Below, piece by piece: positions 2,533-34,343 of a DNA stretch of 64,000 bases. Location: contig NJBN01000009.1 in the NCBI GenBank assembly GCA_005223185.1, forward strand, positions 1,321 to 65,320, written 5' to 3'. The stretch's first letter is position 1, and each line of letters opens with the position of its first letter. The notes below the pieces were generated by a model. The model was not told the origin of the DNA. It made no database searches and saw nothing but the letters and a program-made list of their open reading frames with translations. This stretch comes from a candidate division LCP-89 bacterium B3_LCP. Lineage in GTDB: Bacteria > Electryoneota > B3-LCP. The translations under genes were made by a program, and so were the position numbers.

Positions 2533-3119
2533 TAGAAATAATAAGAGAAAACAACATAACAAAAAGGGTTATGCCGATGCAGAAGGGAATTTTAAGAGTA
2601 AGAGCTTTGAAAGTGCTGGCGGCAATGCTGCTGGTGATACCTTTTCTGATCTGCTCATGCAGCGGGGATAAAACCATAGAAGATGGCGATCTGGGAATAA
2701 GAAAAGGAACTCTTCTAACAGAGGACGTTCTGGTCCCTGAATCTACCACTTCGCTGGTTGAAGCTGGTGCAAGTGAAAGGGTGGCCAGGTCCTTCGAAAA
2801 CGCACCGCCGATGATTCCGCACGAAATCACCGATTATGTGCCGATCACGATTGAAGAGAATGCCTGCACCGAATGCCACATGCCGGAAGTAGCAGAAGAT
2901 GCTGAAGCTACGCCAGTGCCAGCCTCTCACCTGTATGATCTGCGCGAGAATCAACAGTTAAGTGAGCTAAGTGGCGCGGCTTTTAACTGCACGCTGTGTC
3001 ACGCCGCCATGACAGATGCTTCCCTTATTGTTGAGAATGAATTCACGCCAGAATTCAGGGATGATGGCGATGAGCACTCTTCAGATCTTCTTGATAGACT
3101 CAACGAGGGTATCGAATAA
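2529..3119 (+). CDS. napB: Diheme cytochrome c NapB-like
   Basis: Two CxxCH motifs (CTECH, CTLCH). Signal/lipoprotein-like N-terminus (…LLVIPFLICSCSG). ATGA overlap with the napH stop. Alternative internal starts at 2571/2577. Longer than typical NapB, so the true start is uncertain. Confidence 0.65.
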   Translation: MIEIIRENNITKRVMPMQKGILRVRALKVLAAMLLVIPFLICSCSGDKTIEDGDLGIRKGTLLTEDVLVPESTTSLVEAGASERVARSFENAPPMIPHEITDYVPITIEENACTECHMPEVAEDAEATPVPASHLYDLRENQQLSELSGAAFNCTLCHAAMTDASLIVENEFTPEFRDDGDEHSSDLLDRLNEGIE

Positions 3120-3616
3120 ACGGCAAAAGCCTACATCGAAGGGATCTGTTCAAAGCGCTGGTTCAGCCGTTCAGGAATGTCCTGGATCGGAGACCTGTCC
3201 GGCCGCCCTACAATGATGATTCTTCCCTGTTTGATAGCGTCTGTCCGAAATGTGATGAACGCAACTGTGTAACCGCTTGCCCTGAGAAGATCATTGTTAT
3301 CGATAGCAACGGGATTCCTCATCTCGATTTCACCCTAGGTGGGTGTACTTTCTGCGATGCTTGTAAGGAAAGTTGTCCGCACGGTGTACTGAGTTTTGAC
3401 GCTTCTGCAGCCATACGTGGAAGGATAACACTAGATAAGGGGGAATGCATCGCCTGGCAGGATGTGATCTGTAACTTCTGTGGTATATCTTGCGATGAAA
3501 GCGCCATAGAGTTTAGAGGAATGATAAAGCCGCACGTCAATATAGATAAATGCAATTTCTGTGGTAAATGTATCAAGAGCTGCTCCTCAAATGCAATCAG
3601 TATCAATGCAGCGTAA
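3116..3616 (+). CDS. napF: Ferredoxin-type protein NapF-like. No canonical start codon is present.
   Basis: Frame 2 is open from 3098 to the TAA at 3614-3616. The translation (…SLHRRDLF…PVRPPYNDDSSLFDSVCPKCDERNCVTACPEKII…CTFCDACKESCPHG…CNFCGISCDES…CNFCGKCIKSCS) aligns with E. coli NapF, including the GIRPPW…C.RCD.C region and three or four 4Fe-4S motifs. No ATG, GTG or TTG occurs in frame before the first Cys motif, which is why the ORF is missing from the ORF track. The start given is nominal (an ATA codon). Confidence 0.55.
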   Translation: MNGKSLHRRDLFKALVQPFRNVLDRRPVRPPYNDDSSLFDSVCPKCDERNCVTACPEKIIVIDSNGIPHLDFTLGGCTFCDACKESCPHGVLSFDASAAIRGRITLDKGECIAWQDVICNFCGISCDESAIEFRGMIKPHVNIDKCNFCGKCIKSCSSNAISINAA

Positions 3617-4610
3617 CAGGCATACTTTGAATGACTTGAAAGCCTACATCCTTGTTCTCCTTACAGTTGTAACTGCCATATTATTACTTCCAAATGAGGT
3701 CCAATCCAGCCAACCTATAAGAATAAACAGCTTTAAGATAGCAGCTCCCGCCAGTGATTTAATAATTCGTGGCGGGATTGTTATTGCCGGGACCAATGCT
3801 GGGATCGTTTGCAGCTATGATTTAAAAAACGGGACTCTCCTTAAACAGATTAAACTGCCCGAAATCCTCGATTTTATGGGAGACCCCTACGCGCCTTCGA
3901 TATTATCGATCGATTACCTGGAAGACAGATACCTGATTGTGGCAGAAGGCGGCAGAGGTTCCAGAAATATATTTCTTTACACTGGTGACGTTCTTGAAGA
4001 AATACTGCAAGATAAGAGTGATTTGTTGATCAGAAAGGCGAAGTTCATCGATCACGATAGAATCCTCTTAGCACTGGTAAGCAATGAACTAATCTTGTGT
4101 AAAATGCGGGGAGGAGAGGAAATATATCGCCGTCAGGTAAGCCCATCGCTGTTTTCCGATTTTGATGTGGGTGATGGCAAGAGCACAGTTGCAGTTGCTT
4201 GTGAATCGGGATCTATCTTCTTGTTGGATGTGGCTACCGGCAGTGAGATCAGCGAATTACAGGGTGGAAACAAGGATTTGGTGTATGACCTTGAATATTC
4301 TAAAGGTAAGATAATCACAGGTGGCAAGGACAGGCTGTGCGCCCTCTATGACGTCGATACCGGTTCCTTTGAGACGTACCAAGCAGAATTTTTAGTGTTT
4401 GCCGTGGCACTGAATCCATCAGCATCTTGGGGCGCATTCACTGCTGACGAATCGGGAACGGTCAGCATAATTTCCGTCATCGACAGGAGCATAACGGCGA
4501 CTATTCCCGGTGGTGGAGCCCCTATGAATAATCTAAGATTTATCGATGATACAACTCTGCTGTGTTCATCGGAAAGCGCTGAAATAACAATCTGGAGGGT
4601 CGGCAAATGA
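3606..4610 (+). CDS. napL: Periplasmic beta-propeller-like protein NapL-like
   Basis: Its position between napF and napD matches napAGHBFLD operons. The ATG at 3606 overlaps the napF stop (ATGCAGCGTAA). Signal peptide (KAYILVLLTVVTAILLLP). The repeat-rich sequence is consistent with a propeller fold. Function is assigned by synteny only. Confidence 0.5.
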   Translation: MQRNRHTLNDLKAYILVLLTVVTAILLLPNEVQSSQPIRINSFKIAAPASDLIIRGGIVIAGTNAGIVCSYDLKNGTLLKQIKLPEILDFMGDPYAPSILSIDYLEDRYLIVAEGGRGSRNIFLYTGDVLEEILQDKSDLLIRKAKFIDHDRILLALVSNELILCKMRGGEEIYRRQVSPSLFSDFDVGDGKSTVAVACESGSIFLLDVATGSEISELQGGNKDLVYDLEYSKGKIITGGKDRLCALYDVDTGSFETYQAEFLVFAVALNPSASWGAFTADESGTVSIISVIDRSITATIPGGGAPMNNLRFIDDTTLLCSSESAEITIWRVGK

Positions 4611-4891
4611 GTGTTTCCGGGGTGATAGTCAGGACGATGCCTGAGAAGGTCAGTGACGTGATAAAATCTCTCGAGGAATCGGGATTGTGTGATGTTTTCT
4701 TCAGTGATGCCACGGGTAAAATTGTGGTCACCATTGAAGGTGATACTACCGAAGAGGAGATGCGCAAATTCAAGGAGATACAGAACATTCCCGACGTAAT
4801 CAGCGTTGATTTAGCATACTCCCATACTGACGATAATTTCAATAGAAATGGTAAAGATACAGGAGACATACCTGATTTTCTCAAGGATTAG
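4607..4891 (+). CDS. napD: NapA TAT-signal chaperone NapD
   Basis: 94 aa. ATGA overlap with the napL stop. The pattern VSG.IV…V…L…G…V……GKIVVTIEGDT…E……IQNIPDVISVDLAY matches the NapD ferredoxin-like fold family. Confidence 0.6.
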   Translation: MSVSGVIVRTMPEKVSDVIKSLEESGLCDVFFSDATGKIVVTIEGDTTEEEMRKFKEIQNIPDVISVDLAYSHTDDNFNRNGKDTGDIPDFLKD

Positions 4892-5123
4892 GTGTGGGAT
4901 GTCGGCTGATACCCGGAATATTGGGCTGCACTTCGCTATAACCCAACCCACCTTGCTTTCAGGATACAGCACACCTCATAATCCATCCAACCTCAAGCGC
5001 TAAAACTCTTGCGTAATACCAATCTATTTCTTAACTTTCAATGCAGCAGATTGAAAAGTTCTGAAAATGGCAGAAATGTCCGCCAGATGCATCTTCACTG
5101 TTTAGATAAATCGTAGGTTATCT

Positions 5124-6329
5124 ATGGCATCGAAATTCGATTCACTTAGCAGGGATTTTAACTGGCGTTCCAGGAAGGTGGAATGGCCGGTTACGACAGC
5201 TACAGCGCAGGGGTTGTCCGGTGTTATCGCCTGCGAAACCAAGGTGGCATGGGTCAATCCAAATACAGGTGACCTTTACTATCGCGGAATACCTATCGAG
5301 AAGCTTGCTGATAACGCTACTTTTGAAGAGGTGGCGTATCTGCTTGTAGAAGGCAAGAACTGGAAAAGTCGTCCATCAGAATTCCAGCGCTTCTGCGATG
5401 GGTTACACCGCGTCCGGCAGATGCCTGCGGAGGTTCTGCAGATTATCGCTTCGCAGCCGGGGGACGCCCATCCGACCAGATTGCTTCGAGCCGCTGTCTC
5501 CGCACTTGGATGTTACGAGATGCAGCCAGGTAATAATCAGGAGAAAAAACACCCCTGGGAAGATGTATGGATCATCAGCCAGGTGGCGGCTTTAGTCGGT
5601 CATATAGCGCGCTATAGAAACGGTCTCAGGCCTCAAATCACCGACTATCGGCAGTCGCTCGCTAAAGACATGCTTTACATGATCTTAAATACTAAGCCAT
5701 CCAGAGAACAAGTCAGGCTTCTCGATCTTTTATGGGTGCTTTACGCTGATCATGGTTTAGATGCGCCCACCTTCACCGGCATGGTGATTGCGAGTACTGA
5801 AGCGGATCCATATTACAACATCGTAGCAGGTTTGAGCGCTCTGAGAGGTCCTTTGCTTGGTGGCGCCGCTGAAAGAGTAATCCATATGTTGAATGGACTT
5901 CGTGATGCAAACGTTGCCAAAGCCTGGACTATTGGAATGGTAGAGAGAGGATACGTTATTCCCGGGTTCGGACATCGCATGTACCATCAACCCAATCCCA
6001 GAGTGGATATCCTGCGAAAACTCCTTCCGGAATTTGCCACCAGCTCTGAGCAGAAGTTGTTGGTTGAGGTTGCCTCAAGCGTTGAAGAGACAGCCTCTTC
6101 TGTTCTCAATCCGAAGGGGATATATGCCAATCTCCACTTTCATGCAGCGTTGCTTTTCCACTTTTTAGGCGTTGAACCTGAGATGGTTCCCTGTTTTTAC
6201 GCTATCGGGAGAATGGCTGGTTTGGTAGCACGTGTCCGAGAATATCTCCGCGACAACCGGCTTATATATCCTATAGAAGAATATACCGGCAAAACTGAAT
6301 TGACCTATACCAGTATGGAGAAGAGATGA
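5124..6329 (+). CDS. Citrate synthase family protein. Divergent: catalytic His and Asp equivalents are substituted.
   Basis: GL.GV…ETK.A..N…G.L.YRGI.IE.L…ATFEEVAYLL and PGFGHRMY motifs are present. LRGPLLGGAAE replaces the canonical GPLHGGAN. NLHFHAA replaces NVDFYSG. Confidence 0.7.
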   Translation: MASKFDSLSRDFNWRSRKVEWPVTTATAQGLSGVIACETKVAWVNPNTGDLYYRGIPIEKLADNATFEEVAYLLVEGKNWKSRPSEFQRFCDGLHRVRQMPAEVLQIIASQPGDAHPTRLLRAAVSALGCYEMQPGNNQEKKHPWEDVWIISQVAALVGHIARYRNGLRPQITDYRQSLAKDMLYMILNTKPSREQVRLLDLLWVLYADHGLDAPTFTGMVIASTEADPYYNIVAGLSALRGPLLGGAAERVIHMLNGLRDANVAKAWTIGMVERGYVIPGFGHRMYHQPNPRVDILRKLLPEFATSSEQKLLVEVASSVEETASSVLNPKGIYANLHFHAALLFHFLGVEPEMVPCFYAIGRMAGLVARVREYLRDNRLIYPIEEYTGKTELTYTSMEKR

Positions 6330-7444
6330 AACCGATCAAAGAGCCAAGAGAACAAACGTATGACCGTGGGCTGGAGAACCTCATCGTCGGTGAGACCGGT
6401 ATAGGCAAAATTGACGGCGAAGAGGGAAAACTCTGGTACCGGGGGTATGATATCGAGGAATTAGCACAATACAGCACATTTGATGAGGTAGCCTATCTTA
6501 TAATTCATGGTGCTTTACCCACCAGTTCTCAATATGAAAGGTGGCTGCTGGAACTGCAAGTTTGGCACGGGCCTCCGGTTGAAGCTATGACGGTACTCAA
6601 GTGGCTCCCCGCTAACACTCAAGCTCTGATGCTCTACAGGACTATGCTCTCGATCGCCGCCTGTCACATACCAGAAAGCGAAAACACCCGCCTGGATGCT
6701 CAATGGCGTCGTCCGGCACGTATTTTATCATGGTGTTCTACGCTGGCTGCTGCTGCTATATGCCATATTCGTGGAAAAGAGCCCAATCCTTTCAATCCTG
6801 AAAAATTATTCTCAGCCAATTTTCTTTCCCAATCATTGGGCAAGGAGCCTACGGAGTATGAAATAAAAGTATTTGACATCAGCATGATCGTGCAGGCTGA
6901 ACATGGGGTTCACACGGCAGCCTTAGCTGCGCTTGCTACTATCTCAACAGGAGCTGATCTTGGAAGCGCTGTTCTTGCAGGGATGGGAGCCCTTTCGGGT
7001 AAACTGCACGGTGGCGCTAACCAGCTTGCCTTTCAAAATCTCATCCAACACCAATCCGTCGAGGAAGCGAGAGCCTGGACTGCTAAAAGACTGAGTGAGG
7101 GATATAAATTTCCCGGATTCGGTCATCGTATCTATAAAACTCACGATCCCAGAGTAATAATCCTTGAACCCTATGTGGAGAAACTGCTTGCGGATAAAGG
7201 GGATAAGTTGCTGTGGGATATCTATCGGACTGTGCGTGATGAGGTTGAATCGAAGCTAGGAAATAAAGGAATTTATATCAATGCTGACGGCATAACAGGA
7301 ATAATCTACCATGCCCTGGGATTTCCACCGGAATCATTCCGCATTCCATTCCTGCTGGCAATCCAAGTGGGGTGGATGGCACACTGCTTAGAGTATCTAT
7401 CTGACGGAAAAATGATCGAACCGGGAGCAATTTACACAGGATAG
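6326..7444 (+). CDS. Citrate synthase family protein (canonical catalytic residues present)
   Basis: GKLHGGANQ, PGFGHRIYKTHDPRV and NADGITG motifs are conserved. ATGA overlap with the upstream paralog. Confidence 0.75.
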   Translation: MKPIKEPREQTYDRGLENLIVGETGIGKIDGEEGKLWYRGYDIEELAQYSTFDEVAYLIIHGALPTSSQYERWLLELQVWHGPPVEAMTVLKWLPANTQALMLYRTMLSIAACHIPESENTRLDAQWRRPARILSWCSTLAAAAICHIRGKEPNPFNPEKLFSANFLSQSLGKEPTEYEIKVFDISMIVQAEHGVHTAALAALATISTGADLGSAVLAGMGALSGKLHGGANQLAFQNLIQHQSVEEARAWTAKRLSEGYKFPGFGHRIYKTHDPRVIILEPYVEKLLADKGDKLLWDIYRTVRDEVESKLGNKGIYINADGITGIIYHALGFPPESFRIPFLLAIQVGWMAHCLEYLSDGKMIEPGAIYTG

Positions 7445-7450
7445 AGATAA

Positions 7451-7490
7451 AAATGTATGTAGTGATACACATTGAGTATCACTACATACA
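7451..7490. terminator. Near-perfect 15-16 bp inverted repeat hairpin between convergent genes
   Basis: ATGTATGTAGTGATAC-acattga-GTATCACTACATACA, seen directly in the sequence. It lies between the citrate synthase 2 stop (7444) and the response regulator stop (7554). Confidence 0.5.
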
Positions 7491-7553
7491 CTTAAAACAG
7501 GCTTCATGTTGGACTTTCAGAGCATCCGGCAGTTGGTTCCGGGGAGTGGAGCT

Positions 7554-8003
7554 TTAGTTTCCGATGAGCTCTGTGACCTTCGCCACGACTTCTTCAGGTT
7601 CTATGGGCTTGTCGATAAACATTTCGGGTCTGACAAGCTCATCCTCTTGCATCGTCTTTATGGTCTCGCGTAATTTTTCCCGCAAACTATCATAAGGTCT
7701 CTCGAGAGTATCTTCACTCTGGGTATCAAGGTCCTCCAGGGTTTCCGCTACGCCTGTCAACATGATCACTTTCAGATCCTTGAATCTTTCATCCTTACGA
7801 ATCTGTTTATAGAGCACAAATCCTGATTTCTTAGGCATCATTATATCCAGGATAAGCAGATCCGGATTCTCACTCTTAATTTTCTCTATCCCTTCTACGC
7901 CATCGTACGCCCCAATCGGTTCGTAGCCATTCTCCTGCAAAGCTACTGAAAGAAATTTTACCGTATTCACATCATCATCAACTATGAGAACTTTTTTCGC
8001 CAT
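7554..8003 (-). CDS. Stand-alone CheY-like response regulator receiver
   Basis: LIVDDD…D…MP….G motif set (KVLIVDDDVNT; LLILDIMMPKKSG; KVIMLTG). No output domain. Confidence 0.8.
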   Translation of the reverse strand: MAKKVLIVDDDVNTVKFLSVALQENGYEPIGAYDGVEGIEKIKSENPDLLILDIMMPKKSGFVLYKQIRKDERFKDLKVIMLTGVAETLEDLDTQSEDTLERPYDSLREKLRETIKTMQEDELVRPEMFIDKPIEPEEVVAKVTELIGN

Positions 8004-9456
8004 CTATCTTCTCCTCGTTTATTTTAGTCTTATTTATGGGAAGCGTGATACGAAATACTGTACCACAGTTTGGTTTTGAATCTACCTCGATCTCTCCGTT
8101 ATGAGCCTCTATCATTCTCGAAGTAATCGACAAGCCCAAGCCCGTACCGGTCCTGGTTTTTGTGCTGAAGAAAGGGGTAAAAATGTTCTTCTTCACCTCT
8201 TTAGGCATTCCGCAGCCGTTGTCTTCGATCTCGATAACTGCTTTCTGACCGTCATGGTCCAGGTATGCGCTTAATACGATTTCAGGCGTCTCTCCGTCCA
8301 GAAATTCTTTCAGAACGCAGGCGTCCAGAGCATTGGACACTATGTCCATCACCGCTGAATGTATCATCCTGGCATCGCATAATACGGGAGGTAATTCGGA
8401 GGATAAATCCTGCCTGAATTGCACTCCTTTATCTTTCGCTGTCTGTTTTATTACGTTATCTATTTCAGAAAATATCTTAGACAGTTTTACCTGTTCGAAT
8501 TTGGGCTTCCATTCCTTCACGTACTTGAGCATGTGCATCGACATGTCAGTCAGACACGTGATCCCTTCCTGAACGATATCCCACCCCTCTTTGAGCATCT
8601 GTTGGTCATCCTTTGACAAACCGAGTCTGACCATGTAGGCGCCGCCCTTACAAGCATTCAGCATGTTTTTCATAGAATGTTGAATCCCCGTGAAGACCTG
8701 TCCGATAGCAGCATAACGCTGAGAATGAAGCAGTTGATCCTGCAGATGTTTCTCCGCAGTGATGTCCTTGCTGATCCCAATAGTGCCAATTACCTTGCCC
8801 GTTGGATCCCGCAGCCGTGAGATGGTATTCAGCACGTCTCTGACATCTCCGTTCTTCGTCCTGAACTGCGTCTCATAGTTCATCACATTGTCAGTCGGTC
8901 CCATCTTCTGGAGCGCCACTTCTCTGTCATGAGGATCAACGAAGAGCATTTCGATTGGTTTCCCAATCACATCCTGCCGCTGGTAGCCTAAGGCGGTTTC
9001 CGCTCCCTTGTTAATAGTCAGAATCTTGCCTTCAGGGCTAACTGTTATGATGATGTCCGCAGTACTCTCTAAGATGCCCTCTAAGAAATCCTTGTTTTTT
9101 CGCAGCTCTGCCTGGGATGACGCAAGCATAGAAGCCATATTATTGAATGAAGAGGCTAACGTGTTAAATTCATTTCTCTCGTCTTCATTCAACTGCGAAT
9201 CGAATTCATTTTCAGCCAGTTTATTCATACTATTAGCCAATTTACGAACAGGTTGTTTGATGAAGAAATATACAAAGAACCAGGCGGCTCCGCAACTAAG
9301 TATAATGGCAATTGCTATGGTGAAAAAGGTCTGCAGACTCCATTTGGAAACTGGATCTTCTCTTACACCCAAGAGGGCATCTACCAGCAGAACGAGCAAG
9401 CTGATAATTATGAAGACAAAGCTCAGTTTCCAGAAGATGGGGATTCGTTTCAACAT
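7978..9456 (-). CDS. Sensor histidine kinase (TM, PAS, HisKA-like, HATPase_c)
   Basis: Two N-terminal TM segments. PAS-like region (ILESTADIIITVSPEGKILTINKGAE). The C-terminus has the N/G1/G2 boxes of HATPase_c (DNGCGMP…GTGLGLSI). Confidence 0.8.
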   Translation of the reverse strand: MLKRIPIFWKLSFVFIIISLLVLLVDALLGVREDPVSKWSLQTFFTIAIAIILSCGAAWFFVYFFIKQPVRKLANSMNKLAENEFDSQLNEDERNEFNTLASSFNNMASMLASSQAELRKNKDFLEGILESTADIIITVSPEGKILTINKGAETALGYQRQDVIGKPIEMLFVDPHDREVALQKMGPTDNVMNYETQFRTKNGDVRDVLNTISRLRDPTGKVIGTIGISKDITAEKHLQDQLLHSQRYAAIGQVFTGIQHSMKNMLNACKGGAYMVRLGLSKDDQQMLKEGWDIVQEGITCLTDMSMHMLKYVKEWKPKFEQVKLSKIFSEIDNVIKQTAKDKGVQFRQDLSSELPPVLCDARMIHSAVMDIVSNALDACVLKEFLDGETPEIVLSAYLDHDGQKAVIEIEDNGCGMPKEVKKNIFTPFFSTKTRTGTGLGLSITSRMIEAHNGEIEVDSKPNCGTVFRITLPINKTKINEEKIDGEKSSHS

Positions 9457-9533
9457 AAACAGCGTGCATTAATAAGTTTATGTAATGAATGAGAGATTAG
9501 CTTTGTGTTCAAATCAGATATCTGCCTTCAGCG

Positions 9534-10745
9534 TCATAACTTCTTACGACTGGTCGATTCGGGGCAAGGATGGAGAGCCCGCGCTTCTGTTGGAAGTAAT
9601 TTCATATATCTTAATCCCCAGCCAAACATGAACCCTATGACCCCAAATACTCCTAAAGCCTGCAGCACTTCCAGGAAACTGATAGAATAACTGGCAATTC
9701 CTTCCTCGATGGCTGAATGTGTTATCTCCATACCCGGGAAAATCTCTGGCGGATGGGTTAAACCCGGAATAACGATTACATATCTTTCACACAATACACC
9801 GAAGATCACCAGGCTGGATGCTAATACAATCCATTTAACCGATTTGCCCGTTTTTTTTCTGAAAAGAATCACAATGGGAATAACTAAGCCGATCAATATC
9901 AGCCCAATCCAGAAGAGTAAGCTGTGAATGCCTCCAAAGAGATAGTAAACAGCCGCGTGGCGTAATTCAATCACGTAAGCCCGGTATGAATTCTCCACGG
10001 CTATGAAATACAAAACCACGATAACGCAGATTGCCAGAAATCGACCAAGCCATACTATTAGTTCGTCATCCAGTCGCCGATTGGTTAATTTGAATAGCCC
10101 CACTATCATGATAATCATTAGCGCCGTACCAGACGCCATAGCAGCCGCAACGAAACTTGCTGGTAATAACGGAGATTCATAGAGCATTCTGGCGCCAAAA
10201 CCAAAAATAGCTCCGGTGCCGCTATGAACGCAGAAAGCCCATCCAAACGCCAGAGTTGCAACTACTGTCGTCAACTTTTTCCTCTCGGTGAACAGCGCCC
10301 AGAGGTAAACTACACAAATCAGGATATGCCCGATATACAATATTGGATTGATTGAGAACATCGATTGCAGATTGAAATGCACGAATGGTTGAATAAATAC
10401 CCGGTCCATCCTGCCCTGGTCAGTTAGAATCGATAGAAGACCGGCGATGAGGAAGAGCATGGCTAAATAAACAGCGATTCTGGCGAAGGGTTTGTATTCC
10501 AGCTTTCCGAAGACGCCGTATAGACCCGAAATCACCAGAGATCCAGCCGACAATCCGATGTAATAGACTGCCATTACAATCTGTAATCCCCAGGGAACGC
10601 GGCTGTACATGCCGGTAACCCACAGCCCTTTATTAATTATGTAGAACGTCGAAATCAGCCCTGTAATTGCCAGAGCTGCAAAGGCGATCATCGTCACACG
10701 GTATTCAAATGATCTTCCCTCAATGCTCTCGAACTTGATGTCCAT
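9534..10745 (-). CDS. NrfD/PsrC-family integral membrane quinone-interacting subunit (DsrP-like)
   Basis: 403 aa with about 10 hydrophobic helices. It sits directly downstream of a TAT-exported FeS protein and a cytochrome c, the classic NrfD-module arrangement. Confidence 0.7.
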   Translation of the reverse strand: MDIKFESIEGRSFEYRVTMIAFAALAITGLISTFYIINKGLWVTGMYSRVPWGLQIVMAVYYIGLSAGSLVISGLYGVFGKLEYKPFARIAVYLAMLFLIAGLLSILTDQGRMDRVFIQPFVHFNLQSMFSINPILYIGHILICVVYLWALFTERKKLTTVVATLAFGWAFCVHSGTGAIFGFGARMLYESPLLPASFVAAAMASGTALMIIMIVGLFKLTNRRLDDELIVWLGRFLAICVIVVLYFIAVENSYRAYVIELRHAAVYYLFGGIHSLLFWIGLILIGLVIPIVILFRKKTGKSVKWIVLASSLVIFGVLCERYVIVIPGLTHPPEIFPGMEITHSAIEEGIASYSISFLEVLQALGVFGVIGFMFGWGLRYMKLLPTEARALHPCPESTSRKKL

Positions 10746-10768
10746 TTAAACCCCTTGTAATTACAGGT

Positions 10769-11509
10769 TTATAAGCCAATATAGTGCACTTTAGGTGCTG
10801 TACCCAGGTCTTCCTTGAGGCGCTTGACGGCATTGTTCGTGATCAGTTCGGAAACATTGCTTGCCGGATCGTTCATATCGCCTACGAATAGAGCTTCAGC
10901 GCCAACCCTCTGGCAGGCTTCCACACAGGCAGGCATTTTACCAACGTCCAGGCGATGCGCACATAAGTGACATGATTCCGCTACACCATGAGATCTCCTG
11001 GGGCGTTCTTTGTTGGGCCACTCTTCAGTGTCTTTAAAATTAAAGCACCTGGCGTTGTAAGGGCAGGCAATCATACAATACCTGCAGCCTATGCATCGGT
11101 GGTGATCTATAATGACTATGCCGTCATCGCGTTTATATGTAGCCTGTACCGGACAGACTTGTGCGCAGGGCGGATTATCGCAGTGATTACACAGTAATAT
11201 CACTGATTTTTCAGTAGTCTTGGAACCGATCTTACCCTCGATTCTGACCTTCCTGATCCAGTGTATATCCCAGCGTTCGTCCCCTGACAGAGCGACATTA
11301 TTTTCATGACGGCAGGCATCCAGGCAGGCAGTGCAGTTTTCCTGGCATCTGTCGAGGTTAATGACCATACCCCACTTCCGTCCGGTTGACGGTACTTCCA
11401 ATTTCATCCAGGATGCACTGGAAGACGTTAAGAACTGGAAAGCATAAGCGCTGGAGGCTGCTAATAATATTGAGCCTCCCGCTGTTTTCACAAAATCTCT
11501 TCTGTCCAT
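10769..11509 (-). CDS. TAT-exported 4Fe-4S ferredoxin-type subunit (DsrO/NrfC/HybA-like)
   Basis: Twin-arginine signal MDRRDFVKTAGGSILLAASSAYA. Multiple CxxCxxCxxxCP motifs. Confidence 0.8.
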   Translation of the reverse strand: MDRRDFVKTAGGSILLAASSAYAFQFLTSSSASWMKLEVPSTGRKWGMVINLDRCQENCTACLDACRHENNVALSGDERWDIHWIRKVRIEGKIGSKTTEKSVILLCNHCDNPPCAQVCPVQATYKRDDGIVIIDHHRCIGCRYCMIACPYNARCFNFKDTEEWPNKERPRRSHGVAESCHLCAHRLDVGKMPACVEACQRVGAEALFVGDMNDPASNVSELITNNAVKRLKEDLGTAPKVHYIGL

Positions 11510-11547
11510 TATCTGTCTAACCTGTTTAATGCTGATTTATTAGCCTA

Positions 11548-11922
11548 TTACGGATAGTAATGACAGTCAAAGCAATCGGGCGTCAGGCTGGTAGCATCAT
11601 GGCATTTATTACAGAACCGTTCTCGGCTGGTATGACATTCCCTGCACTTGTTAAAGTTTATATCTTCTCTCTTTCCGTATCGAACCACTTCTTCTCGAAT
11701 TCCACGAAGGAGTTCCCAGTGGTGATAGCGCATGTATTCGGTATCTTTGATACAGTTTTTGTATTTTGGATCAGGTCTCTCTAAGAATAGTTGGGAACTC
11801 TGATCACCCTCAGTAGAGACCGAGGAAACAATGCTCCATACCAGCGGAAGCAAGATGAGAAGCACGATAATTACCACAGCTGCGATGCTTGCGTTTTTGC
11901 CCAATATTTCTTGAAGGTTCAT
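11548..11922 (-). CDS. Membrane-anchored triheme cytochrome c (DsrJ-like)
   Basis: N-terminal hydrophobic anchor. Three CxxCH motifs (CRECH, CNKCH, CFDCH). 124 aa. Confidence 0.65.
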   Translation of the reverse strand: MNLQEILGKNASIAAVVIIVLLILLPLVWSIVSSVSTEGDQSSQLFLERPDPKYKNCIKDTEYMRYHHWELLRGIREEVVRYGKREDINFNKCRECHTSRERFCNKCHDATSLTPDCFDCHYYP

Positions 11923-11943
11923 TGATAATCTCCGTTTTAAGGT

Positions 11944-13284
11944 CTATGAACCGTTCTGGGTAGTTGCATTTCCCTGCTCAGATGCAGTTTCTTCTTCCTG
12001 CCTGGGACTATCTTCTCCATCAGAGTTAACTGTCAGATTAGCATTAACCACAGTGGATATTTCCACGTTCCTGCCTGTATATTCGTCATATATCAGAGCA
12101 GTAGTGCGATAGAATATATGCGCCAACTTGGAATAAGGCAGGTAAAGTATTAACCCCAGGACAAAGACTAGATGCGTAAAGTAAGCTAAGTGTCTATGGG
12201 GATCTAAGCGAACGTAATGCAGCACTTCGGTGATATATCCAGTTATTACCACAATGAGGATCGTTCCTAAGAGCAACCAGTCGAAATATTTCCCTGTGTG
12301 GGCACTCTCTTTTCCTTTATAGCGATCCATGATCATCAAGAGAATGCCTGCTAATACCGCCGCGCCGCCCAGATTTGCTAAGATTTTCCAGGGACTCCAG
12401 AAGCTGAAAGGATAGATGAAATCGCCTTGTATAAAAGGATTTATCCTGATGGTAATTATCCAGAATGTCACCAGGCTTAATCCCGCAAAACCGAAAAGGA
12501 CCAACATGTGAGACCATAGCCGCGGCGCTGATTCCGTACATTTACTGAAGTCGTCGTGGAAGATAATCTTTTTTAGTGTTACGATGATACTGGAGAACAG
12601 GCTTTTAGCCGATGCGGGATTTTTCCGGGGGAAGGTAGTTTTCATGGCTTTCCAGAAGCGGATTGCACCGATAATTCCTGAAGCTGAAGCTAAGATACTG
12701 AAGAACATGAAGAAGCTGATCAGCAACCAGTGAGGAAACATACTGGAATAAGGATATATTATCCTTTCGCCTGTAGGTTCAATAATTCCTAAGACGTTGG
12801 CGATGGGGTCCTTCAGATATAATGCCAGGATAAGTAGCAGAGTGGGGATCGCTAAGAGGAAAATAACACTCTGAGGTTCGCTTGCCCATTTACCTAAAAA
12901 ACTAGGGAAGGACCAGCGAATTACACCAGCTTGGCGGATGCCTGCCATGACGTCACCGGGCTTGACGTCACGAGGGCATTTCGCTGAACAATCATTGCAC
13001 TGGTGGCAAAGCCAGACGTCCGGATCTCCCAAAAGAAGGTCTTTCATTCCCCAGGAAGCCCAGGCCATTTCCTTTCTGGGGAATGGCTCAGGATCCGGCG
13101 AAAGTTCGCAGGTTGCCGAGCAGGTTCCACACTGCATACATTTCTTATAAATGCCGGGCGTATGCTTGCCCAACATGCGGATGAAATCCAGATCCGGTTC
13201 GATTAATAAAGGTCTGCCGTTTTTGGAAAGAACAAAAGTGGTTTTGGGGGAATCTTCCGCTGAAATGTTCGGTTTATCCTGCAT
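11944..13284 (-). CDS. qmoC: QmoC-like subunit: HdrC-like 2x[4Fe-4S] domain fused to an HdrE-like heme-b membrane domain
   Basis: N-terminal CMQCGTCSATC and CHQCNDCSAKCP ferredoxin motifs, followed by about 6 TM helices with conserved His. No CCG motifs, so not DsrK. Confidence 0.65.
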   Translation of the reverse strand: MQDKPNISAEDSPKTTFVLSKNGRPLLIEPDLDFIRMLGKHTPGIYKKCMQCGTCSATCELSPDPEPFPRKEMAWASWGMKDLLLGDPDVWLCHQCNDCSAKCPRDVKPGDVMAGIRQAGVIRWSFPSFLGKWASEPQSVIFLLAIPTLLLILALYLKDPIANVLGIIEPTGERIIYPYSSMFPHWLLISFFMFFSILASASGIIGAIRFWKAMKTTFPRKNPASAKSLFSSIIVTLKKIIFHDDFSKCTESAPRLWSHMLVLFGFAGLSLVTFWIITIRINPFIQGDFIYPFSFWSPWKILANLGGAAVLAGILLMIMDRYKGKESAHTGKYFDWLLLGTILIVVITGYITEVLHYVRLDPHRHLAYFTHLVFVLGLILYLPYSKLAHIFYRTTALIYDEYTGRNVEISTVVNANLTVNSDGEDSPRQEEETASEQGNATTQNGS

Positions 13285-13373
13285 AACCTTCCCGCCAGTT
13301 TTAGCTGTGGTTTATCAAATATCTATTCCCAGAATATGCTGGCAAAAGAACAGTTACCAACACAAATTTTGTA

Positions 13374-15647
13374 TCACATCCCTTTAAATGGGTTCATGCC
13401 AATATCTTCGATCAACTCCGCAAAGTTGTTGAATATCTCAGGGAGTTTATGGTACTCGGATATCTGCAATTGATGGAGTTCTACTCTCTCGTTCTCCATC
13501 TGCATCTGTTCCAGTTTTTCCCTGATGTTTTCACCGCGGGAATCGGCCAATTCGCTACCCTTAATAAAGTGGCATTGATAGTCGTCCCCATACTTGCAGC
13601 CGATCAAGATAACTCCGTCAAAACCTTCCGATATAGCATCCTTTACCCAGGCAACATTCATCGATCCCAGACATCGTACCGGAATTATCCTGATGAAGGG
13701 ACTGTACTTCATGCGGTGCTGTCCCACCAGGTCCAAAGCCGGAAATGCGTCGTTTTCACAAAGAAGCGCCAAAATTCTCGGTTTCTCCTCATCCTCATCC
13801 GGTACTTCTACTGCCTTGATCATCGACGCTATGATATTAACCGAGTAATCTTTGAAGTTTACTATTCGTTCAGGACAAGCACCCATACAGACCCCACATC
13901 TTCGGCAGCGAGTGGGCCATGGCTCAGGGGTGCCTTTAGGATCCTCGTTGAGCACTCCGAAGGGACATTCCTCAGTACAACGTTTGCATTGAGTACAATT
14001 CTGCAAGAAGAAGTCCGGATAGGACTTATCACCTGCACGGGGATGAACCGCTTCCCCTCGTGAAGTCATTTCAATGCATTGAATTGCTTTTAATGCAGCT
14101 CCCGTTCCATCTTCTCTGCCTCCGATTCCGTCCATCGGTTGGCGGACAGATCCGGCAGGATAGATTCCGGTGCGTCTGCTTTCATAGGGGAAGCAGATGA
14201 AGTGCGAATCCGGAAAACCGTTCTGGAGTACATTCAGGTCGGGTCCCTGACGATATTCAAGGTTTAAGATCTCGGTTCCCTGGTGGTGTTTGAGCCGTTC
14301 AACAGTCTCAGCGGCTCTATCGCGTTGAATGTCAGATTCGCCCTCTGTTACAGCGACCCTTGCATCTTCCAGCGCCCTGATGGCTTCACCATCGGCAGAA
14401 TTAGGCGTCATTCCAGCAGCGAGAACAACTAAATCCACTTTAACTTGAATTTGTTCACCGGGCATGGTGTTCTTGGCAGTAACGGTAAGTTTCCCGTCGT
14501 CATCCCGTGAAACGTCGGCGACTTCTCCTCTGGTAAAGAATATTCCAGGATCTTCTTGTGTTTTGCGATAAAAATCCTCATAGAGTCCTGGCGTTCGCAT
14601 GAATTCATAGAAGATATATGCTTTGGCGTCATCGTCGCGCTCGCGCAGATATGAAGCTTGCTTCAGTGAGGTGAGACAGCATATCGAAGAGCAGTAAGAA
14701 TGGTGTTCTTTATCCCTGGATCCACCGCATTGTATGAACGCTATACTCTTTACTTCCTTACCATCAGATGGACGGGTTATGCGATCCTGGTTCTTGACCA
14801 TCTCTTCTAATTCAACGTTTCGAATGACGTCTTCAACTTTGCCATAGGGGAGAGTATCACGAGGTTCCACGGGCTTCCAGCCAGAAGCCTGGACTATGGA
14901 ACCCACCCGAAATGTATGCAGTACATCACTGTCCGGCTTGCCGTTTTTGGCCGATTTAATAGATACGTCAAACAAACCGGGAGCCCCGGTAATCTTGCTT
15001 GTTACAGCCGAGGTATATATTTTGATCTGCGTATTTCCCTTAACCTCCTCTATTAATTCATCGACGCCCGTGTCCTCTAAATCACGATATGGAGGTTTCG
15101 TGGGAATTGATTTATGCTGCTTGGCCAACCAGCCGCCCAATTGGTTAGTCTTCTCCACCAAATGGACTTTATACCCTGCCTTCGATGCTTCCAGCGCGGC
15201 CGTCAAACCGGTGATTCCACCGCCGACTACCAGGATGCTCTTATCGATGGCTTCCTCTGATTTGAAGGGTTCCACTGGTTCCATCTTCTGCAGTTTGGTT
15301 ATATACATGCGGAGATAATCTTCCGCCAGCATCTGGGTGTCTTCATCGTTTGCCGGTTGACACCATACGACGTGTTCCCGCAAGGCGACCTTTTCCACCA
15401 TCACATCCTGGGGAAACATATCGTCGGTATAGCAGCGCGGAGATATCCCCGCGATCAGCACTTTATTCAGCTCTTCTCTGGCGATATCTTCGTTGATAGA
15501 ATCCAGGACTGGCTTCTCGCAAGAATCAATCGTTTTACAGAAGGATACTTTATACTCGTCAGTGGCTACTTTGCACAAAGCGTCAATATCAAGTGCTTCA
15601 GATATTCCATAAGCCTTGCAAATAAAGATGCCAATTTTATCTTCCAT
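13374..15647 (-). CDS. qmoB: QmoB-like HdrA-family FAD flavoprotein with C-terminal MvhD-like domain
   Basis: 757 aa. Rossmann GxGxxG (LVVGGGITGLTAA). Cys-rich FeS motifs. C-terminal MvhD-like segment (…CENDAFPALD…RCLGS…GCKYGDDYQC). Confidence 0.7.
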   Translation of the reverse strand: MEDKIGIFICKAYGISEALDIDALCKVATDEYKVSFCKTIDSCEKPVLDSINEDIAREELNKVLIAGISPRCYTDDMFPQDVMVEKVALREHVVWCQPANDEDTQMLAEDYLRMYITKLQKMEPVEPFKSEEAIDKSILVVGGGITGLTAALEASKAGYKVHLVEKTNQLGGWLAKQHKSIPTKPPYRDLEDTGVDELIEEVKGNTQIKIYTSAVTSKITGAPGLFDVSIKSAKNGKPDSDVLHTFRVGSIVQASGWKPVEPRDTLPYGKVEDVIRNVELEEMVKNQDRITRPSDGKEVKSIAFIQCGGSRDKEHHSYCSSICCLTSLKQASYLRERDDDAKAYIFYEFMRTPGLYEDFYRKTQEDPGIFFTRGEVADVSRDDDGKLTVTAKNTMPGEQIQVKVDLVVLAAGMTPNSADGEAIRALEDARVAVTEGESDIQRDRAAETVERLKHHQGTEILNLEYRQGPDLNVLQNGFPDSHFICFPYESRRTGIYPAGSVRQPMDGIGGREDGTGAALKAIQCIEMTSRGEAVHPRAGDKSYPDFFLQNCTQCKRCTEECPFGVLNEDPKGTPEPWPTRCRRCGVCMGACPERIVNFKDYSVNIIASMIKAVEVPDEDEEKPRILALLCENDAFPALDLVGQHRMKYSPFIRIIPVRCLGSMNVAWVKDAISEGFDGVILIGCKYGDDYQCHFIKGSELADSRGENIREKLEQMQMENERVELHQLQISEYHKLPEIFNNFAELIEDIGMNPFKGM

Positions 15648-15651
15648 TAAA

Positions 15652-16914
15652 TCACTCTCCTCTGTTGAGGCATTGAATCGCTTTTAGTGTGGCTGCTGTC
15701 GAATCTTTCGTTGTGCGGGAGACGTCACACGGGCGCTTGGCACAGCCTACCGTGTACACGCCATCAAAGTTTGTAACTCCGTCTGTGAAGCCGTAGTCAT
15801 CGTATTTTAATTCAAAGGGAATCTTGAAGTCCGGAGTGTTGGGTACCATGCCGGTCGCCAGGACAACCATGTCGAATCCTTTATGGAGATTTTCTCGCGT
15901 TATGGTATCCTCCACATCCAGCACCAGATTTTCACTACCAGGTTCCTCACTGATCTTGGCGACCTTACCTTTGATGAATGAGACATTTTCATCTTCCAAC
16001 AGGTCGTAATAGAACTTTTCCTCACGGCCGATGGTACGAACGTCAATGTAGAAAACAGTTATCTTGGCGTTTTCGTTCTTCTCCCTGATGTATCTGACCT
16101 GCTTTAGTGAACCCATGCAGCAGACCGCCGAGCAGTAGGGGAGATGGTTCTCATCCCTCGATCCGGCACATTGCACGAAAGCTATGTTCTCAGCTTTCTT
16201 TCCGTCAGATGGGCGGACGATTTCCCCTGCTGTGGGACCACCCATAGCAGCCAATCGCTCCATCATAACGTTGGTGATCACGTTCTGGCATTGACCAAAT
16301 CCCAGGTAATCTAATTTTGTAGCATCGTATGGCCGCCACCCAGTAGCGATTATGACAGCGCCAATATCCACAGCAATCCTCTTCTCAGTCATCTCCAGAT
16401 CGATAGCTCCCGGAGGACAGATCTCGTTAAGTTTCTCAGCATCTGTCTCGGATAAGGCTTCCCGGTCAAGGACATAACCAGGAGGATAAGCCATGTCATG
16501 CGGCATGTATAATGCCTTGGTCTTATCCATCCCATAATTGAAGTCATTGACCCTTTCAGTTGTCAATTTCTCCGTCATGGAATCAGCTATCAAATGCATG
16601 TCGGTCACATACTTAGGTCTTATGCGGATTTTGGCTCTAAGATCACCTGCTTCGTCGGTGATCTCTTCCACCGTAGCCATAGTATGGACTGTGATTCTGG
16701 GATTTTGCTTTATTCTGCGCGTATTGATTTCAAATCCGCATGTTGGAGGACACATCTTTGGGAAATATCGGTGCATGCGCATCACGCGTCCACCTAAATA
16801 AGCTTCCTTTTCCACCAGGATAACCTTATATCCAATCTCAGCAGCATCCACTGCCGCCGTCATCCCTCCGATTCCACCTCCGATTACAAGAAGAGGTTTA
16901 GCATTAGCATTCAT
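15652..16914 (-). CDS. qmoA: QmoA-like HdrA-family FAD flavoprotein
   Basis: 420 aa. N-terminal GGGIGGMTAA dinucleotide-binding motif. HdrA-like Cys (CAGSRD…CS.VCC). Sits immediately upstream of qmoB with a 4-nt spacer. Confidence 0.7.
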   Translation of the reverse strand: MNANAKPLLVIGGGIGGMTAAVDAAEIGYKVILVEKEAYLGGRVMRMHRYFPKMCPPTCGFEINTRRIKQNPRITVHTMATVEEITDEAGDLRAKIRIRPKYVTDMHLIADSMTEKLTTERVNDFNYGMDKTKALYMPHDMAYPPGYVLDREALSETDAEKLNEICPPGAIDLEMTEKRIAVDIGAVIIATGWRPYDATKLDYLGFGQCQNVITNVMMERLAAMGGPTAGEIVRPSDGKKAENIAFVQCAGSRDENHLPYCSAVCCMGSLKQVRYIREKNENAKITVFYIDVRTIGREEKFYYDLLEDENVSFIKGKVAKISEEPGSENLVLDVEDTITRENLHKGFDMVVLATGMVPNTPDFKIPFELKYDDYGFTDGVTNFDGVYTVGCAKRPCDVSRTTKDSTAATLKAIQCLNRGE

Positions 16915-17474: not shown

Positions 17475-17500
17475 AAAAAACCCGACTCTAAGAGGTCGGG
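17475..17500 (-). terminator. Rho-independent terminator for the 17585-18127 gene
   Basis: On the minus strand: CCCGAC-loop-GTCGGG hairpin followed by a TTTTTT run. Confidence 0.6.
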
Positions 17501-17584
17501 TCACCCGTTCTGAAGAATTAAACCTTCAGTCGTCTATATCAGAGAGAACATAGATCCATATCATTCGATTGTTAGCTTTCATAC

Positions 17585-18127
17585 TTATTTGTTTTGTTGA
17601 ATTAGTTTATTTGCTAGTTCCATTTTAGCTTGGTCTCTTTTTGCCTCATCAGTGACCATACTTGTTGCGAGGAAAGACATAGAGACCTGTTGCATCGTGA
17701 CCAACTTATCATGGAAGAGATTAATTTGTTGAAGGGCCTTATTGTAAAGATAGAAGAACACTCCAGCAATGAACTCAGTTAGCATTCCGGCAATAGAGGA
17801 AAGGTATACGGCATTAAGATTGACATTGCCACTAAATGTAGAGAAGATGCTGATCCCAATCGCAATTGCCAGCAAAAAGAAACCAACAATAGCCATGATT
17901 CGACTAAGGCTAAAACTTTGTTGAGCTTGGATTCTAGTTTGTGCAATATACCCCTCAAGGGCTGCGATATTAATAAGAAGTATGTACTTAAATATTTCAT
18001 TCCCGGTAGCACTCTCTAGCTTGTCCGCATAAGTTTTCTTCTCTTTTGAAGCCTTGTCAACTACTTTAGAAAAGGCTTTTAACATTTCAGAAGCTGCTGC
18101 CCCAAGAAGAAACGGTTCCATCACCAT
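17585..18127 (-). CDS. Hypothetical small membrane protein (helical N-terminus plus 2 TM)
   Basis: 180 aa. Two long hydrophobic helices (IMAIVGFFLLAIAIGISIF; AGMLTEFIAGVFFYLY). No recognisable catalytic motifs. It has its own terminator. Confidence 0.4.
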   Translation of the reverse strand: MVMEPFLLGAAASEMLKAFSKVVDKASKEKKTYADKLESATGNEIFKYILLINIAALEGYIAQTRIQAQQSFSLSRIMAIVGFFLLAIAIGISIFSTFSGNVNLNAVYLSSIAGMLTEFIAGVFFYLYNKALQQINLFHDKLVTMQQVSMSFLATSMVTDEAKRDQAKMELANKLIQQNK

Positions 18128-34164: not shown

Positions 34165-34282
34165 AGTTAGTTAATACAGCTACTTAGGATGGTATTCGAG
34201 GAAAAGCGGATATTACTAGTTTATAATATACTAAATATTTTCCTATTTGTCAAGTGGTTTTCTCTTCTCAGGGAAAATTTGT

Positions 34283-34318
34283 ACAAAAAATAAAGGGCAG
34301 ACACACAGGCCTGCCCTT
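34283..34318 (-). terminator. Rho-independent terminator of the C25 protease gene
   Basis: Minus sense: GGGCAGGCCTGTGTGTCTGCCC followed by TTTATTTTTTG. Confidence 0.65.
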
Positions 34319-34343
34319 TCATTTTCTTGGAACATTTTCCTTC

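Follow-up and report, generated by a model that had tools for sequence, protein, structure and literature searches.

A paralogous qmoABC set followed by dsrJOP-like genes forms a conserved operon in candidate division LCP-89 and other bacterial lineages

DsrMKJOP and QmoABC are the closest described relatives of the system presented here, and each carries an open question, namely the role of DsrJOP and the means by which QmoABC drives adenosine 5′-phosphosulfate (APS) reduction from menaquinol. What DsrJOP does has been described as ‘an enigma’, for which quinone cycling or proton pumping has been put forward (2024, PMC10861901), and the menaquinol:DsrC-trisulfide oxidoreductase activity sits in DsrK (PMC10861901). 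For Qmo, the near-isoenergetic step from menaquinol to APS has been noted as a problem (PMC3333476). Both questions are touched by an operon in a 64-kb stretch of DNA (hereafter, the window) on contig NJBN01000009.1 of B3_LCP, a bacterium from candidate division LCP-89, in which genes for a paralogous QmoA, QmoB and QmoC are followed by genes for DsrJ-, DsrO- and DsrP-like subunits (Table 1). We propose, with a probability of about 0.5, that the products of these six genes make up a single accessory complex, under separate regulation, that spans the membrane and transfers electrons in dissimilatory sulfur metabolism; it is referred to as Qmo-JOP.

An earlier note on this DNA had described six co-oriented genes with spacers of 4–90 nt, and its coordinates are exact: all six lie on the minus strand, separated from qmoA to dsrP by 4, 89, 21, 38 and 23 nt in gene order. 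The PAS kinase and response regulator that it placed downstream on the same strand are present, in genes that overlap by 26 nt, and exact look-up identifies TKJ38513.1 as the QmoA of the window. Pfam and NCBIfam domain scans found neither dsrM nor dsrK in the operon, so that the subunit carrying the DsrC-trisulfide activity is absent and QmoC together with QmoAB holds, at the gene level, the position of DsrMK in dsrMKJOP. To this extent the suggestion that QmoC takes the place of DsrMK stands, but it does not extend to a general replacement, as some relatives keep a complete canonical dsrMKJOP within 10 kb of the operon. The note had also raised the possibility of aprAB lying immediately upstream of qmoA; it is absent there, the neighbours being a gene for a protein with two transmembrane (TM) helices and, beyond it, a divergent gene for a 946-aa surface protein, and no apr or sat gene was found anywhere in the window.

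The remainder of the genome places this arrangement in context. The B3_LCP assembly (GCA_005223185.1) is 97.8% complete (Supplementary Table 1 of Neukirchen, Pereira and Sousa, ISME J 2023, PMC10504309), and the same table records ‘DsrP-DsrO-QmoC-QmoB-QmoA’ for exactly the accessions of the window. In its accessible part, a separate region of the genome is listed with at least AprA-AprB-Sat-QmoB-QmoA-QmoC (TKJ40784-40789), and a lone DsrM, DsrL, HdrBC and HmcEBC are listed elsewhere (PMC10504309). Because a canonical aprAB-sat-qmo cluster exists in the same genome, the operon is an extra, paralogous Qmo set and not a displaced one; the note was right that qmoABC here stands upstream of dsrJOP-like genes and away from apr, but not in implying displacement. 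B3_LCP, the only LCP-89 assembly found in the 2023 table (PMC10504309), is an uncultured bacterium of sediment and probably a sulfate reducer, and reductive-type Dsr proteins have been reported for candidate division LCP-89 (DiSCo paper). The window also contains genes of a periplasmic nitrate reductase (nap), so B3_LCP can probably respire nitrate as well. Full-text literature searches found no description of the qmoABC-dsrJOP arrangement, which is not discussed in the text or supplementary discussion of PMC10504309 and is visible there only as synteny strings in the table.

The earlier domain assignments for the Qmo subunits were borne out, and all three share the domain architecture of the QmoABC encoded in sat-aprAB-qmoABC clusters. 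QmoA gave flavin adenine dinucleotide (FAD)/Rossmann matches in Pfam and scored 326 bits against the NCBIfam HdrA2 model, and its CxGSRDx7CSxxCC motif (C249, C261, C265 and C266) is 100% conserved in 42 sequences, the set to which all conservation values given here refer. QmoB is likewise HdrA-like (HdrA2, 385 bits), with Fer4 motifs and the MvhD-like tail that had been described (C-terminal MvhD/FlpD domain PF02662, residues 625–750, E = 4e-38); both CX2CX2CX3C motifs and the four cysteines of the MvhD domain are 100% conserved, and the HdrA-type cysteine motif is 93–100% conserved. QmoC consists, as stated in the note, of an HdrC-like domain with 2x[4Fe-4S] to which an HdrE-like membrane domain with heme b is fused: six TM helices are predicted after the cytoplasmic domain, eight cysteines and six membrane-domain histidines (candidate ligands) are 100% conserved, and the protein exceeds the cut-off of the NCBIfam QmoC equivalog NF038018 (367.7 versus 300 bits). 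The possibility of a swapped-in DsrM was rejected, as the DsrM profile gave this protein only 6.7 bits while a family profile of the operon QmoC gave canonical sat-linked QmoC 140 bits and DsrM ~18 bits; by these scores the operon QmoC is a true QmoC. The likeness to sat-aprAB-linked QmoABC, which includes the QmoC equivalog match, is also marked in the C-terminal half of QmoB (297 aa), which is 65% identical to a sat-linked QmoB in locus L073, suggesting the same likely partner. In contrast, the membrane domain of QmoC is only ~31% identical to that of sat-linked QmoC, and the window set is a second copy in its genome that lies apart from aprAB and sat and precedes dsrJOP-like genes and a two-component system of its own.

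As judged from their protein sequences, the first two of the downstream genes are true homologues of dsrJ and dsrO, and the third is probably one of dsrP. The DsrJ-like protein, described in the note as a triheme cytochrome c with a membrane anchor, has one N-terminal TM anchor helix and three CXXCH motifs. NCBIfam DsrJ was its sole match, and because the score of 75 bits lies under the cut-off of 100 it is regarded as a divergent member of DsrJ. It can be aligned along its length with canonical DsrJ, without an 8–10-residue insertion of the latter, and C57 falls in the column of the conserved canonical cysteine that is a proposed ligand of the His/Cys heme. C57, H68 and the three CXXCH motifs are 100% conserved; the residue after the conserved histidine is usually Trp in DsrJ-like proteins and Met in canonical DsrJ. 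The DsrO-like protein begins with MDRRDFVK, a twin-arginine motif, and its 16 cluster cysteines are 98–100% conserved, consistent with the earlier description of a 4Fe-4S protein exported by twin-arginine translocation (Tat). It exceeds the cut-off of the NCBIfam DsrO equivalog NF045797 (280 versus 200 bits) and remains below those of TtrB (168 versus 416), NrfC (143 versus 378), QrcC (139 versus 400) and HmcB (86 versus 420), with 143 bits for ArrB.

The DsrP-like protein was confirmed as an NrfD-type membrane subunit (PF03916, E = 1e-46), with about ten helices in an AlphaFold2 model of modest quality (mean predicted local distance difference test score, pLDDT, of 62). Its best NCBIfam model is DsrP, at 79 bits far under the cut-off of 350, with 40 bits for QrcD (cut-off 570) and 51 bits for NrfD (cut-off 348). 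However, bona fide archaeal DsrP, taken from dsrOPMKJ clusters (L069 and L070) as a calibration, also reaches only 87–94 bits, so the low score probably reflects a narrow model and not non-membership, and it was dropped as evidence against DsrP membership. When its ten best full-length relatives in a library of 1.84 billion proteins clustered at 50% were compared with NCBIfam, all of them were sub-threshold; nine had DsrP as their best model, and a Psr or Ttr model was matched by none. Sequence searches of the PDB found no solved Qmo or DsrMKJOP subunits and no matches for the DsrP-like or DsrJ-like proteins. The statement that the last three genes mirror DsrJ, DsrO and DsrP therefore holds for the first two and probably for the third, with DsrJ the only NCBIfam match of the first, DsrO passed by the second and DsrP the best model of the third. 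Membership in the Psr, Ttr, Nrf, Qrc or Hmc families, the outcome that the note had set against its own interpretation, was rejected: the NCBIfam scores given above for such models lie below their cut-offs, and the Dsr models are best. No molybdopterin or multiheme catalytic subunit was found in the operon at any of the 41 complete loci described next.

The arrangement is widespread. A homology search with the DsrP-like protein returned more than 1000 matches, the best 120 of which were all at least 75% identical, and one scan of GTDB species-representative genomes gave 72 loci (labelled L0xx), at which it is 57–87% identical to its homologues and gene order was derived from tblastn and open reading frame (ORF) analysis. 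The order qmoA-qmoB-qmoC-dsrJ-dsrO-dsrP was found in 41 complete, non-duplicate loci of other genomes, in addition to many copies cut by contig ends, and this recurrence argues that the arrangement is not due to chance. The hosts are all metagenome-assembled genomes (MAGs) or single-amplified genomes (SAGs), with no isolate among them, and are labelled as Zixibacteria, KSB1, Calditrichaeota, Ca. Electryonea, Planctomycetota (Phycisphaerales, Pirellulaceae and Thermoguttaceae), Acidobacteriota, Latescibacterota, Gemmatimonadaceae and Ignavibacteria, a few of these labels being doubtful. Of the 41 complete loci, 30 have the kinase and 33 the regulator next to the operon, and clustering of flanking ORFs identified these two as the only recurrent further neighbours. 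In addition, nearly every predicted cofactor ligand is invariant across the 42 sequences, indicating that the proteins are functional. The full order is present wherever a close DsrP-like gene has sufficient intact sequence upstream, apart from four loci. In L009 and L062, qmoA or qmoB was not recovered intact. In L050 (CP070813.1, a Zixibacteria chromosome; 10001–12821), a 5′-truncated dsrP-like gene (residues 126–402) is followed by kinase and regulator genes, with qmo, dsrJ and dsrO absent upstream, and this locus is an apparent operon remnant. In L073 (an Acidobacteriota MAG from a long-read assembly; 1–11200), the operon is split into many short ORFs, representing either a decaying copy or long-read frameshift errors.

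The Qmo-linked JOP genes appear to have a single origin. In a crude neighbour-joining tree of DsrO and DsrP, built without support values, all Qmo-linked pairs fall in one clade, of which the sat/dsr-linked L061 is the first branch; its sister consists of dsrAB-linked dsrOP pairs, and archaeal canonical DsrOP lies outside both. The sister pairs, from Spirochaetales and ‘delta proteobacterium’ MAGs (L064, L068, L071 and L074; ~9250–11190 in each), lack dsrJ and lie divergent beside dsrAB-dsrL-dsrC-dsrT-dsrM, with a DsrP ~53% identical to that of the window. Such dsrOP pairs without adjacent qmo or dsrMK, which also occur in the DsrOhPh cluster of cable bacteria, leave some room for two independent co-transcribed complexes, one being an additional QmoABC of the ordinary kind and the other a DsrJOP-like quinone:cytochrome module that stands alone and serves DsrMK or another partner; DsrJOP has been regarded as a separable module (PMC10861901), and B3_LCP has its lone DsrM elsewhere in the genome. 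We nevertheless regard this as improbable, since the full order is retained wherever the upstream sequence is intact apart from the four loci above, an overlap between qmoC and dsrJ is seen in several lineages (4 nt long in L002 and L003, according to the database’s own gene calls), the Qmo-linked JOP proteins form a single clade, and in L053 and L061 a canonical dsrMKJOP is already present, so that DsrMK has no need of such JOP copies.

Physical linkage to sulfur metabolism was found at four loci. In L053 (Acidobacteria) the operon is directly followed by dsrA (591 bits), dsrL, dsrC, dsrM (480), dsrK (731), dsrJ (154), dsrO and dsrP, while the genes behind it in L061 (Planctomycetota) are sat, dsrC, dsrM, dsrK, dsrJ and dsrO; dsrT occurs near the operon in both, and a likely dsrD in the former. 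A sat gene lies ~5 kb downstream in L045, and in L073 the operon is located between qmoBC-sat and dsrA. With canonical dsrMKJO(P) within 10 kb, the notion that the operon holds a sole DsrJOP moved off dsrMK was rejected for L053 and L061, and the table listings make it unlikely for B3_LCP and for the Zixibacteria genomes B5_G4 and B22_G1. B5_G4 has the operon together with sat-aprAB and canonical dsrJOP. B22_G1 also has sat-aprAB and canonical dsrJOP, and is listed with a lone DsrP, its contig (L019) carrying only the DsrP-like, kinase and regulator genes. For Ca. Electryonea clarkiae (L021), a full gene set for dissimilatory sulfate reduction has been reported (Ace Lake paper).

These linkages bear on whether the operon belongs to APS reduction at all. 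It could instead encode a general HdrA-type quinone/cytochrome-linked oxidoreductase spread horizontally among bacteria of sediments, such as one that links the menaquinone pool or periplasmic donors, by confurcation or bifurcation, to ferredoxin, NAD(P)H or a thiol/disulfide carrier. The self-contained nature of the operon, beside which nothing but its own kinase and regulator is conserved, is in keeping with such a role, as is its presence in Planctomycetota, KSB1, Latescibacterota, Gemmatimonadaceae and other MAGs beyond the genome-level apr/dsr information, which covers B3_LCP, B5_G4, B22_G1 and Ca. Electryonea clarkiae. Some Qmo types occur in organisms without Dsr or Apr (PMC10504309), and according to the accessible part of PMC5947623, the second QmoABC of Syntrophobacter fumaroxidans is expressed without sulfate and roles beyond sulfidogenesis have been suggested; no JOP genes are mentioned with it in that part. 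However, all four hosts with genome-level data have sat and aprAB, and dsrAB where checkable (B22_G1 with only the DsrP-like piece of the operon), and the five Zixibacteria rows lacking Apr and DsrAB that are fully shown in the accessible part of the PMC10504309 table, a small sample, do not list the hybrid cluster. Together with the four linked loci, the 65% identity of QmoB to its sat-linked counterpart and the position of the nearest relatives of the OP pair beside dsrAB, this makes a role unrelated to APS reduction unlikely.

Given the gene content, cofactor motifs, topology, synteny, within-genome paralogy and occasional sat/dsr linkage observed here, the qmoABC-dsrJOP arrangement is well supported at the level of genes. 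For the protein level, we infer a single complex and its electron path, AprAB partner, direction of flow and energy coupling, with electron bifurcation as a further possibility. Its plan would be that of DsrMKJOP and Hmc, in which a periplasmic/quinone module is joined by a heme-b membrane subunit to a cytoplasmic Hdr-type module. The DsrJ-, DsrO- and DsrP-like proteins would form the first of these, QmoC would be the heme-b subunit and QmoA and QmoB would form the cytoplasmic module, positions held in DsrMKJOP by the NarI-like diheme-b DsrM and the HdrD-type DsrK. Menaquinol, and possibly a periplasmic reductant, would be handled at two sites, the DsrP-like subunit and the hemes b of QmoC, and electrons would pass across the membrane through the hemes and iron–sulfur (FeS) clusters of QmoC to the FAD and FeS centres of QmoB and QmoA and on to a cytoplasmic acceptor. 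The most likely acceptor is APS reductase (AprAB), encoded elsewhere in the genome. JOP may make the APS step more energy-coupled, by quinone cycling or proton translocation, or may add a periplasmic entry or exit for electrons. The dedicated pair of PAS kinase and receiver suggests conditional use, and may turn on Qmo-JOP under particular redox conditions beside the plain QmoABC next to aprAB-sat.

Several points weigh against Qmo-JOP as a single complex of sulfur metabolism. Electron transfer from menaquinol to APS is nearly isoenergetic, so a simple reductive electrogenic loop would be hard to drive without a second, low-potential donor. The low identity of the QmoC membrane domain to that of sat-linked QmoC means that the partners of the two Qmo sets may differ, and co-transcription is no proof that the products form a single complex. 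About 37 of the 41 complete loci have no sulfur-metabolism gene within 10 kb, and the apr/dsr co-occurrence data come from the four hosts with genome-level information named above. The modest quality of the DsrP-like model and the absence of support values in the tree must also be counted here.

Sequence does not settle which way electrons flow, and an oxidative role deserves consideration. In this case, during the oxidation of sulfite or sulfur, electrons released by AprAB as sulfite and AMP are converted to APS would pass through QmoAB and QmoC to the quinone pool via DsrOP, or to the DsrJ-like cytochrome and onward to cytochrome c-dependent terminal reductases, with the plain QmoABC serving sulfate reduction in these facultative anaerobes. 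The literature describes the host lineages as facultatively anaerobic, equips them with high-affinity oxidases and DsrL-2 and infers that they oxidise sulfite, the sensor kinase suggests conditional use, nap genes are present in the window, and on established redox potentials transfer from the APS/sulfite couple to cytochromes is thermodynamically easier than the reverse. In contrast, the nap linkage is not conserved at other loci, canonical DsrJ is not known as an electron donor to soluble cytochromes, the operon stands beside reductive-context genes in L053 and L061 (dsrT in both and the putative dsrD in L053), and none of the sequence features examined indicates a direction. We consider an oxidative function rather unlikely.

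As JOP is here conserved across many species with a partner that lacks the DsrK/DsrC-trisulfide site, a general role tied to a heme-b quinol-oxidising subunit, and not to DsrC chemistry, is suggested, and the invariant extra cysteine of the DsrJ-like protein suggests that the unusual His/Cys heme belongs to this role. Attached to Qmo, such a role would address the thermodynamic difficulty of menaquinol-driven APS reduction; run in reverse, Qmo-JOP would give sulfite oxidation an outlet to periplasmic cytochromes. Tentatively, Qmo-JOP might be a respiratory complex not recognised before, in which DsrJOP is a general, transferable energy-coupling device for different heme-b/Hdr-type units that makes the menaquinol-APS step energy-conserving or reversible, and it might work by quinone cycling, quinone-based bifurcation or proton translocation. 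If true, this would explain both the DsrJOP puzzle and that of energy conservation by Qmo. The operon offers a second, independent system in which ideas of quinone cycling or proton pumping can be tested. The complex would also be an accessory trait of putative sulfate reducers that have newly been recognised in sediments and are for the most part facultative anaerobes (Zixibacteria, Electryoneota/LCP-89, Acidobacteriota and Planctomycetota), and in those lineages it could mark a particular mode of sulfur metabolism.

The eight genes from qmoA to the regulator are flanked by strong terminator-like hairpins, with none of comparable strength inside according to a consensus scan, and the hairpin behind the regulator gene is likely the 3′ end of the transcription unit. 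The promoter-like sites are weak evidence, as such matches are no commoner than in shuffled sequence. Of the genes around the operon, the upstream CyanoTRADDas_TM gene is not among the recurrent neighbours at other loci. Two tandem genes of the citrate synthase family are convergent with the operon in the window, and the same pair lies beside it in the closest relatives (L002, L003, L005, L008, L010 and L042); a reversible citrate synthase and reductive tricarboxylic acid cycle have been inferred for Electryoneota in the Ace Lake paper. Further away, the window encodes a protein of 984 aa that contains a PKD domain and a PGA_cap domain, the latter for poly-gamma-glutamate capsule synthesis, and poly-gamma-glutamate synthesis has been inferred for Electryoneota in the Ace Lake study. 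Two ORFs of ~1400 aa at 29.9–38.6 kb were rejected as rpoBC, their domain content being that of cargo proteins of the type IX secretion system (T9SS). A complete-looking locus for an extracellular contractile injection system (eCIS/PVC-like), with a sigma-54 activator, comprises sheath, gp19-type tube, T4 baseplate, Pvc16_N, gp25 and eCIS_core-domain proteins, an AAA ATPase and a VgrG-like OB-fold spike, and includes very large ORFs of 1244 and 1222 aa.

Table 1 Positions in the window of the genes of the qmoABC-dsrJOP operon, its candidate boundary signals and other features
Feature	Position	Strand	Description
qmoA paralogue, TKJ38513.1	15652-16914	minus	420 aa, HdrA-like flavoprotein
qmoB paralogue, TKJ38512.1	13374-15647	minus	757 aa, HdrA-like flavoprotein + 2x[4Fe-4S] ferredoxin domain + C-terminal MvhD-like domain
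qmoC paralogue, TKJ38511.1	11944-13284	minus	446 aa, HdrC-like 2x[4Fe-4S] domain (predicted cytoplasmic) + 6-TM HdrE-like heme-b domain
dsrJ-like, TKJ38510.1	11548-11922	minus	124 aa, predicted periplasmic membrane-anchored triheme cytochrome c
dsrO-like, TKJ38509.1	10769-11509	minus	246 aa, predicted periplasmic, Tat-exported, four [4Fe-4S] motifs
dsrP-like, TKJ38508.1	9534-10745	minus	403 aa, predicted NrfD-family 10-helix quinone-interacting membrane subunit
HAMP-PAS histidine kinase	7978-9456	minus	Pfam HAMP, PAS, HATPase_c; two N-terminal TM helices
Receiver-only response regulator	7554-8003	minus	PF00072 residues 5-105, no output domain
Terminator-like hairpin, 18-bp stem + T-run	7451-7493	minus	3′ of regulator gene; consensus scan, pattern match only
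Terminator-like hairpin of upstream gene	17479-17502	minus	5′ boundary of unit; consensus scan, pattern match only
Promoter-like sites	17159-17131 and 16988-16960	minus	Consensus scan; match count no higher than in shuffled sequence
2-TM protein, CyanoTRADDas_TM domain	17585-18127	minus	Directly upstream of operon
Periplasmic nitrate reductase genes	70-3119	plus	napA 3′ end, napG, napH, napB
Citrate-synthase-family gene pair	5124-7444	plus	
PKD + PGA_cap protein	22527-25481	minus	
T9SS cargo proteins	29926-38561	minus	Two proteins, both with a C-terminal sorting domain for T9SS; one is a gingipain-like C25 peptidase including its propeptide
Sigma-54 activator	38880-40238		With eCIS locus
eCIS locus	40922-62923	plus	

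Modular electron-transfer complexes of this general kind are known from several systems. Hmc joins a cytochrome c of the periplasm to a pair of NrfC/NrfD type, a subunit with heme b and an Hdr-related protein in the cytoplasm, and Tmc follows the same logic. The modular logic of HmcABCDEF and TmcABCD of Desulfovibrio is thus like that of the window operon, but in these complexes the cytochrome is a large multiheme protein and the cytoplasmic subunit is of the HdrD type (CCG), and the window proteins score far under the respective cut-offs (TmcC 18 versus 240 bits, and HmcB as given above). Alternative complex III (ActABCDEF) provides, through its 10-helix quinol-binding subunit ActC, the best structural match in the PDB to the modest-quality DsrP-like model (TM-score ~0.55, Foldseek probability 1.0), and the FeS subunit of the window matches the FeS domain of ActB. 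However, identities are 16–19%, the pentaheme ActA, the pterin-like domain of ActB and the second NrfD subunit have no counterpart in the operon, and the window complex would add a cytoplasmic flavoprotein module. The TMH1-DsrOhPh-tetrahaem cluster of cable bacteria (PMC13047784), likened here by its description, likewise has DsrOP homologues off dsrMK with a different cytochrome, but contains no Qmo genes and has tetraheme cytochromes instead of the DsrJ-type triheme protein. The closest likeness of the JOP part is to DsrMKJOP (Hme). In contrast to that complex, the operon has neither DsrM nor the CCG-motif catalytic site of DsrK for the DsrC trisulfide, with QmoC, QmoB and QmoA instead, and its JOP proteins form a clade of their own, the DsrJ and DsrO of the cluster type being ~31–45% identical to the canonical DsrJ and DsrO of the same genomes. 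Nevertheless, the two share a triheme anchored DsrJ with an extra cysteine, a Tat-exported DsrO with four FeS motifs, a probable 10-helix DsrP, the gene order J-O-P and an overall plan in which JOP is joined to a membrane subunit with heme b and an Hdr-type module in the cytoplasm.

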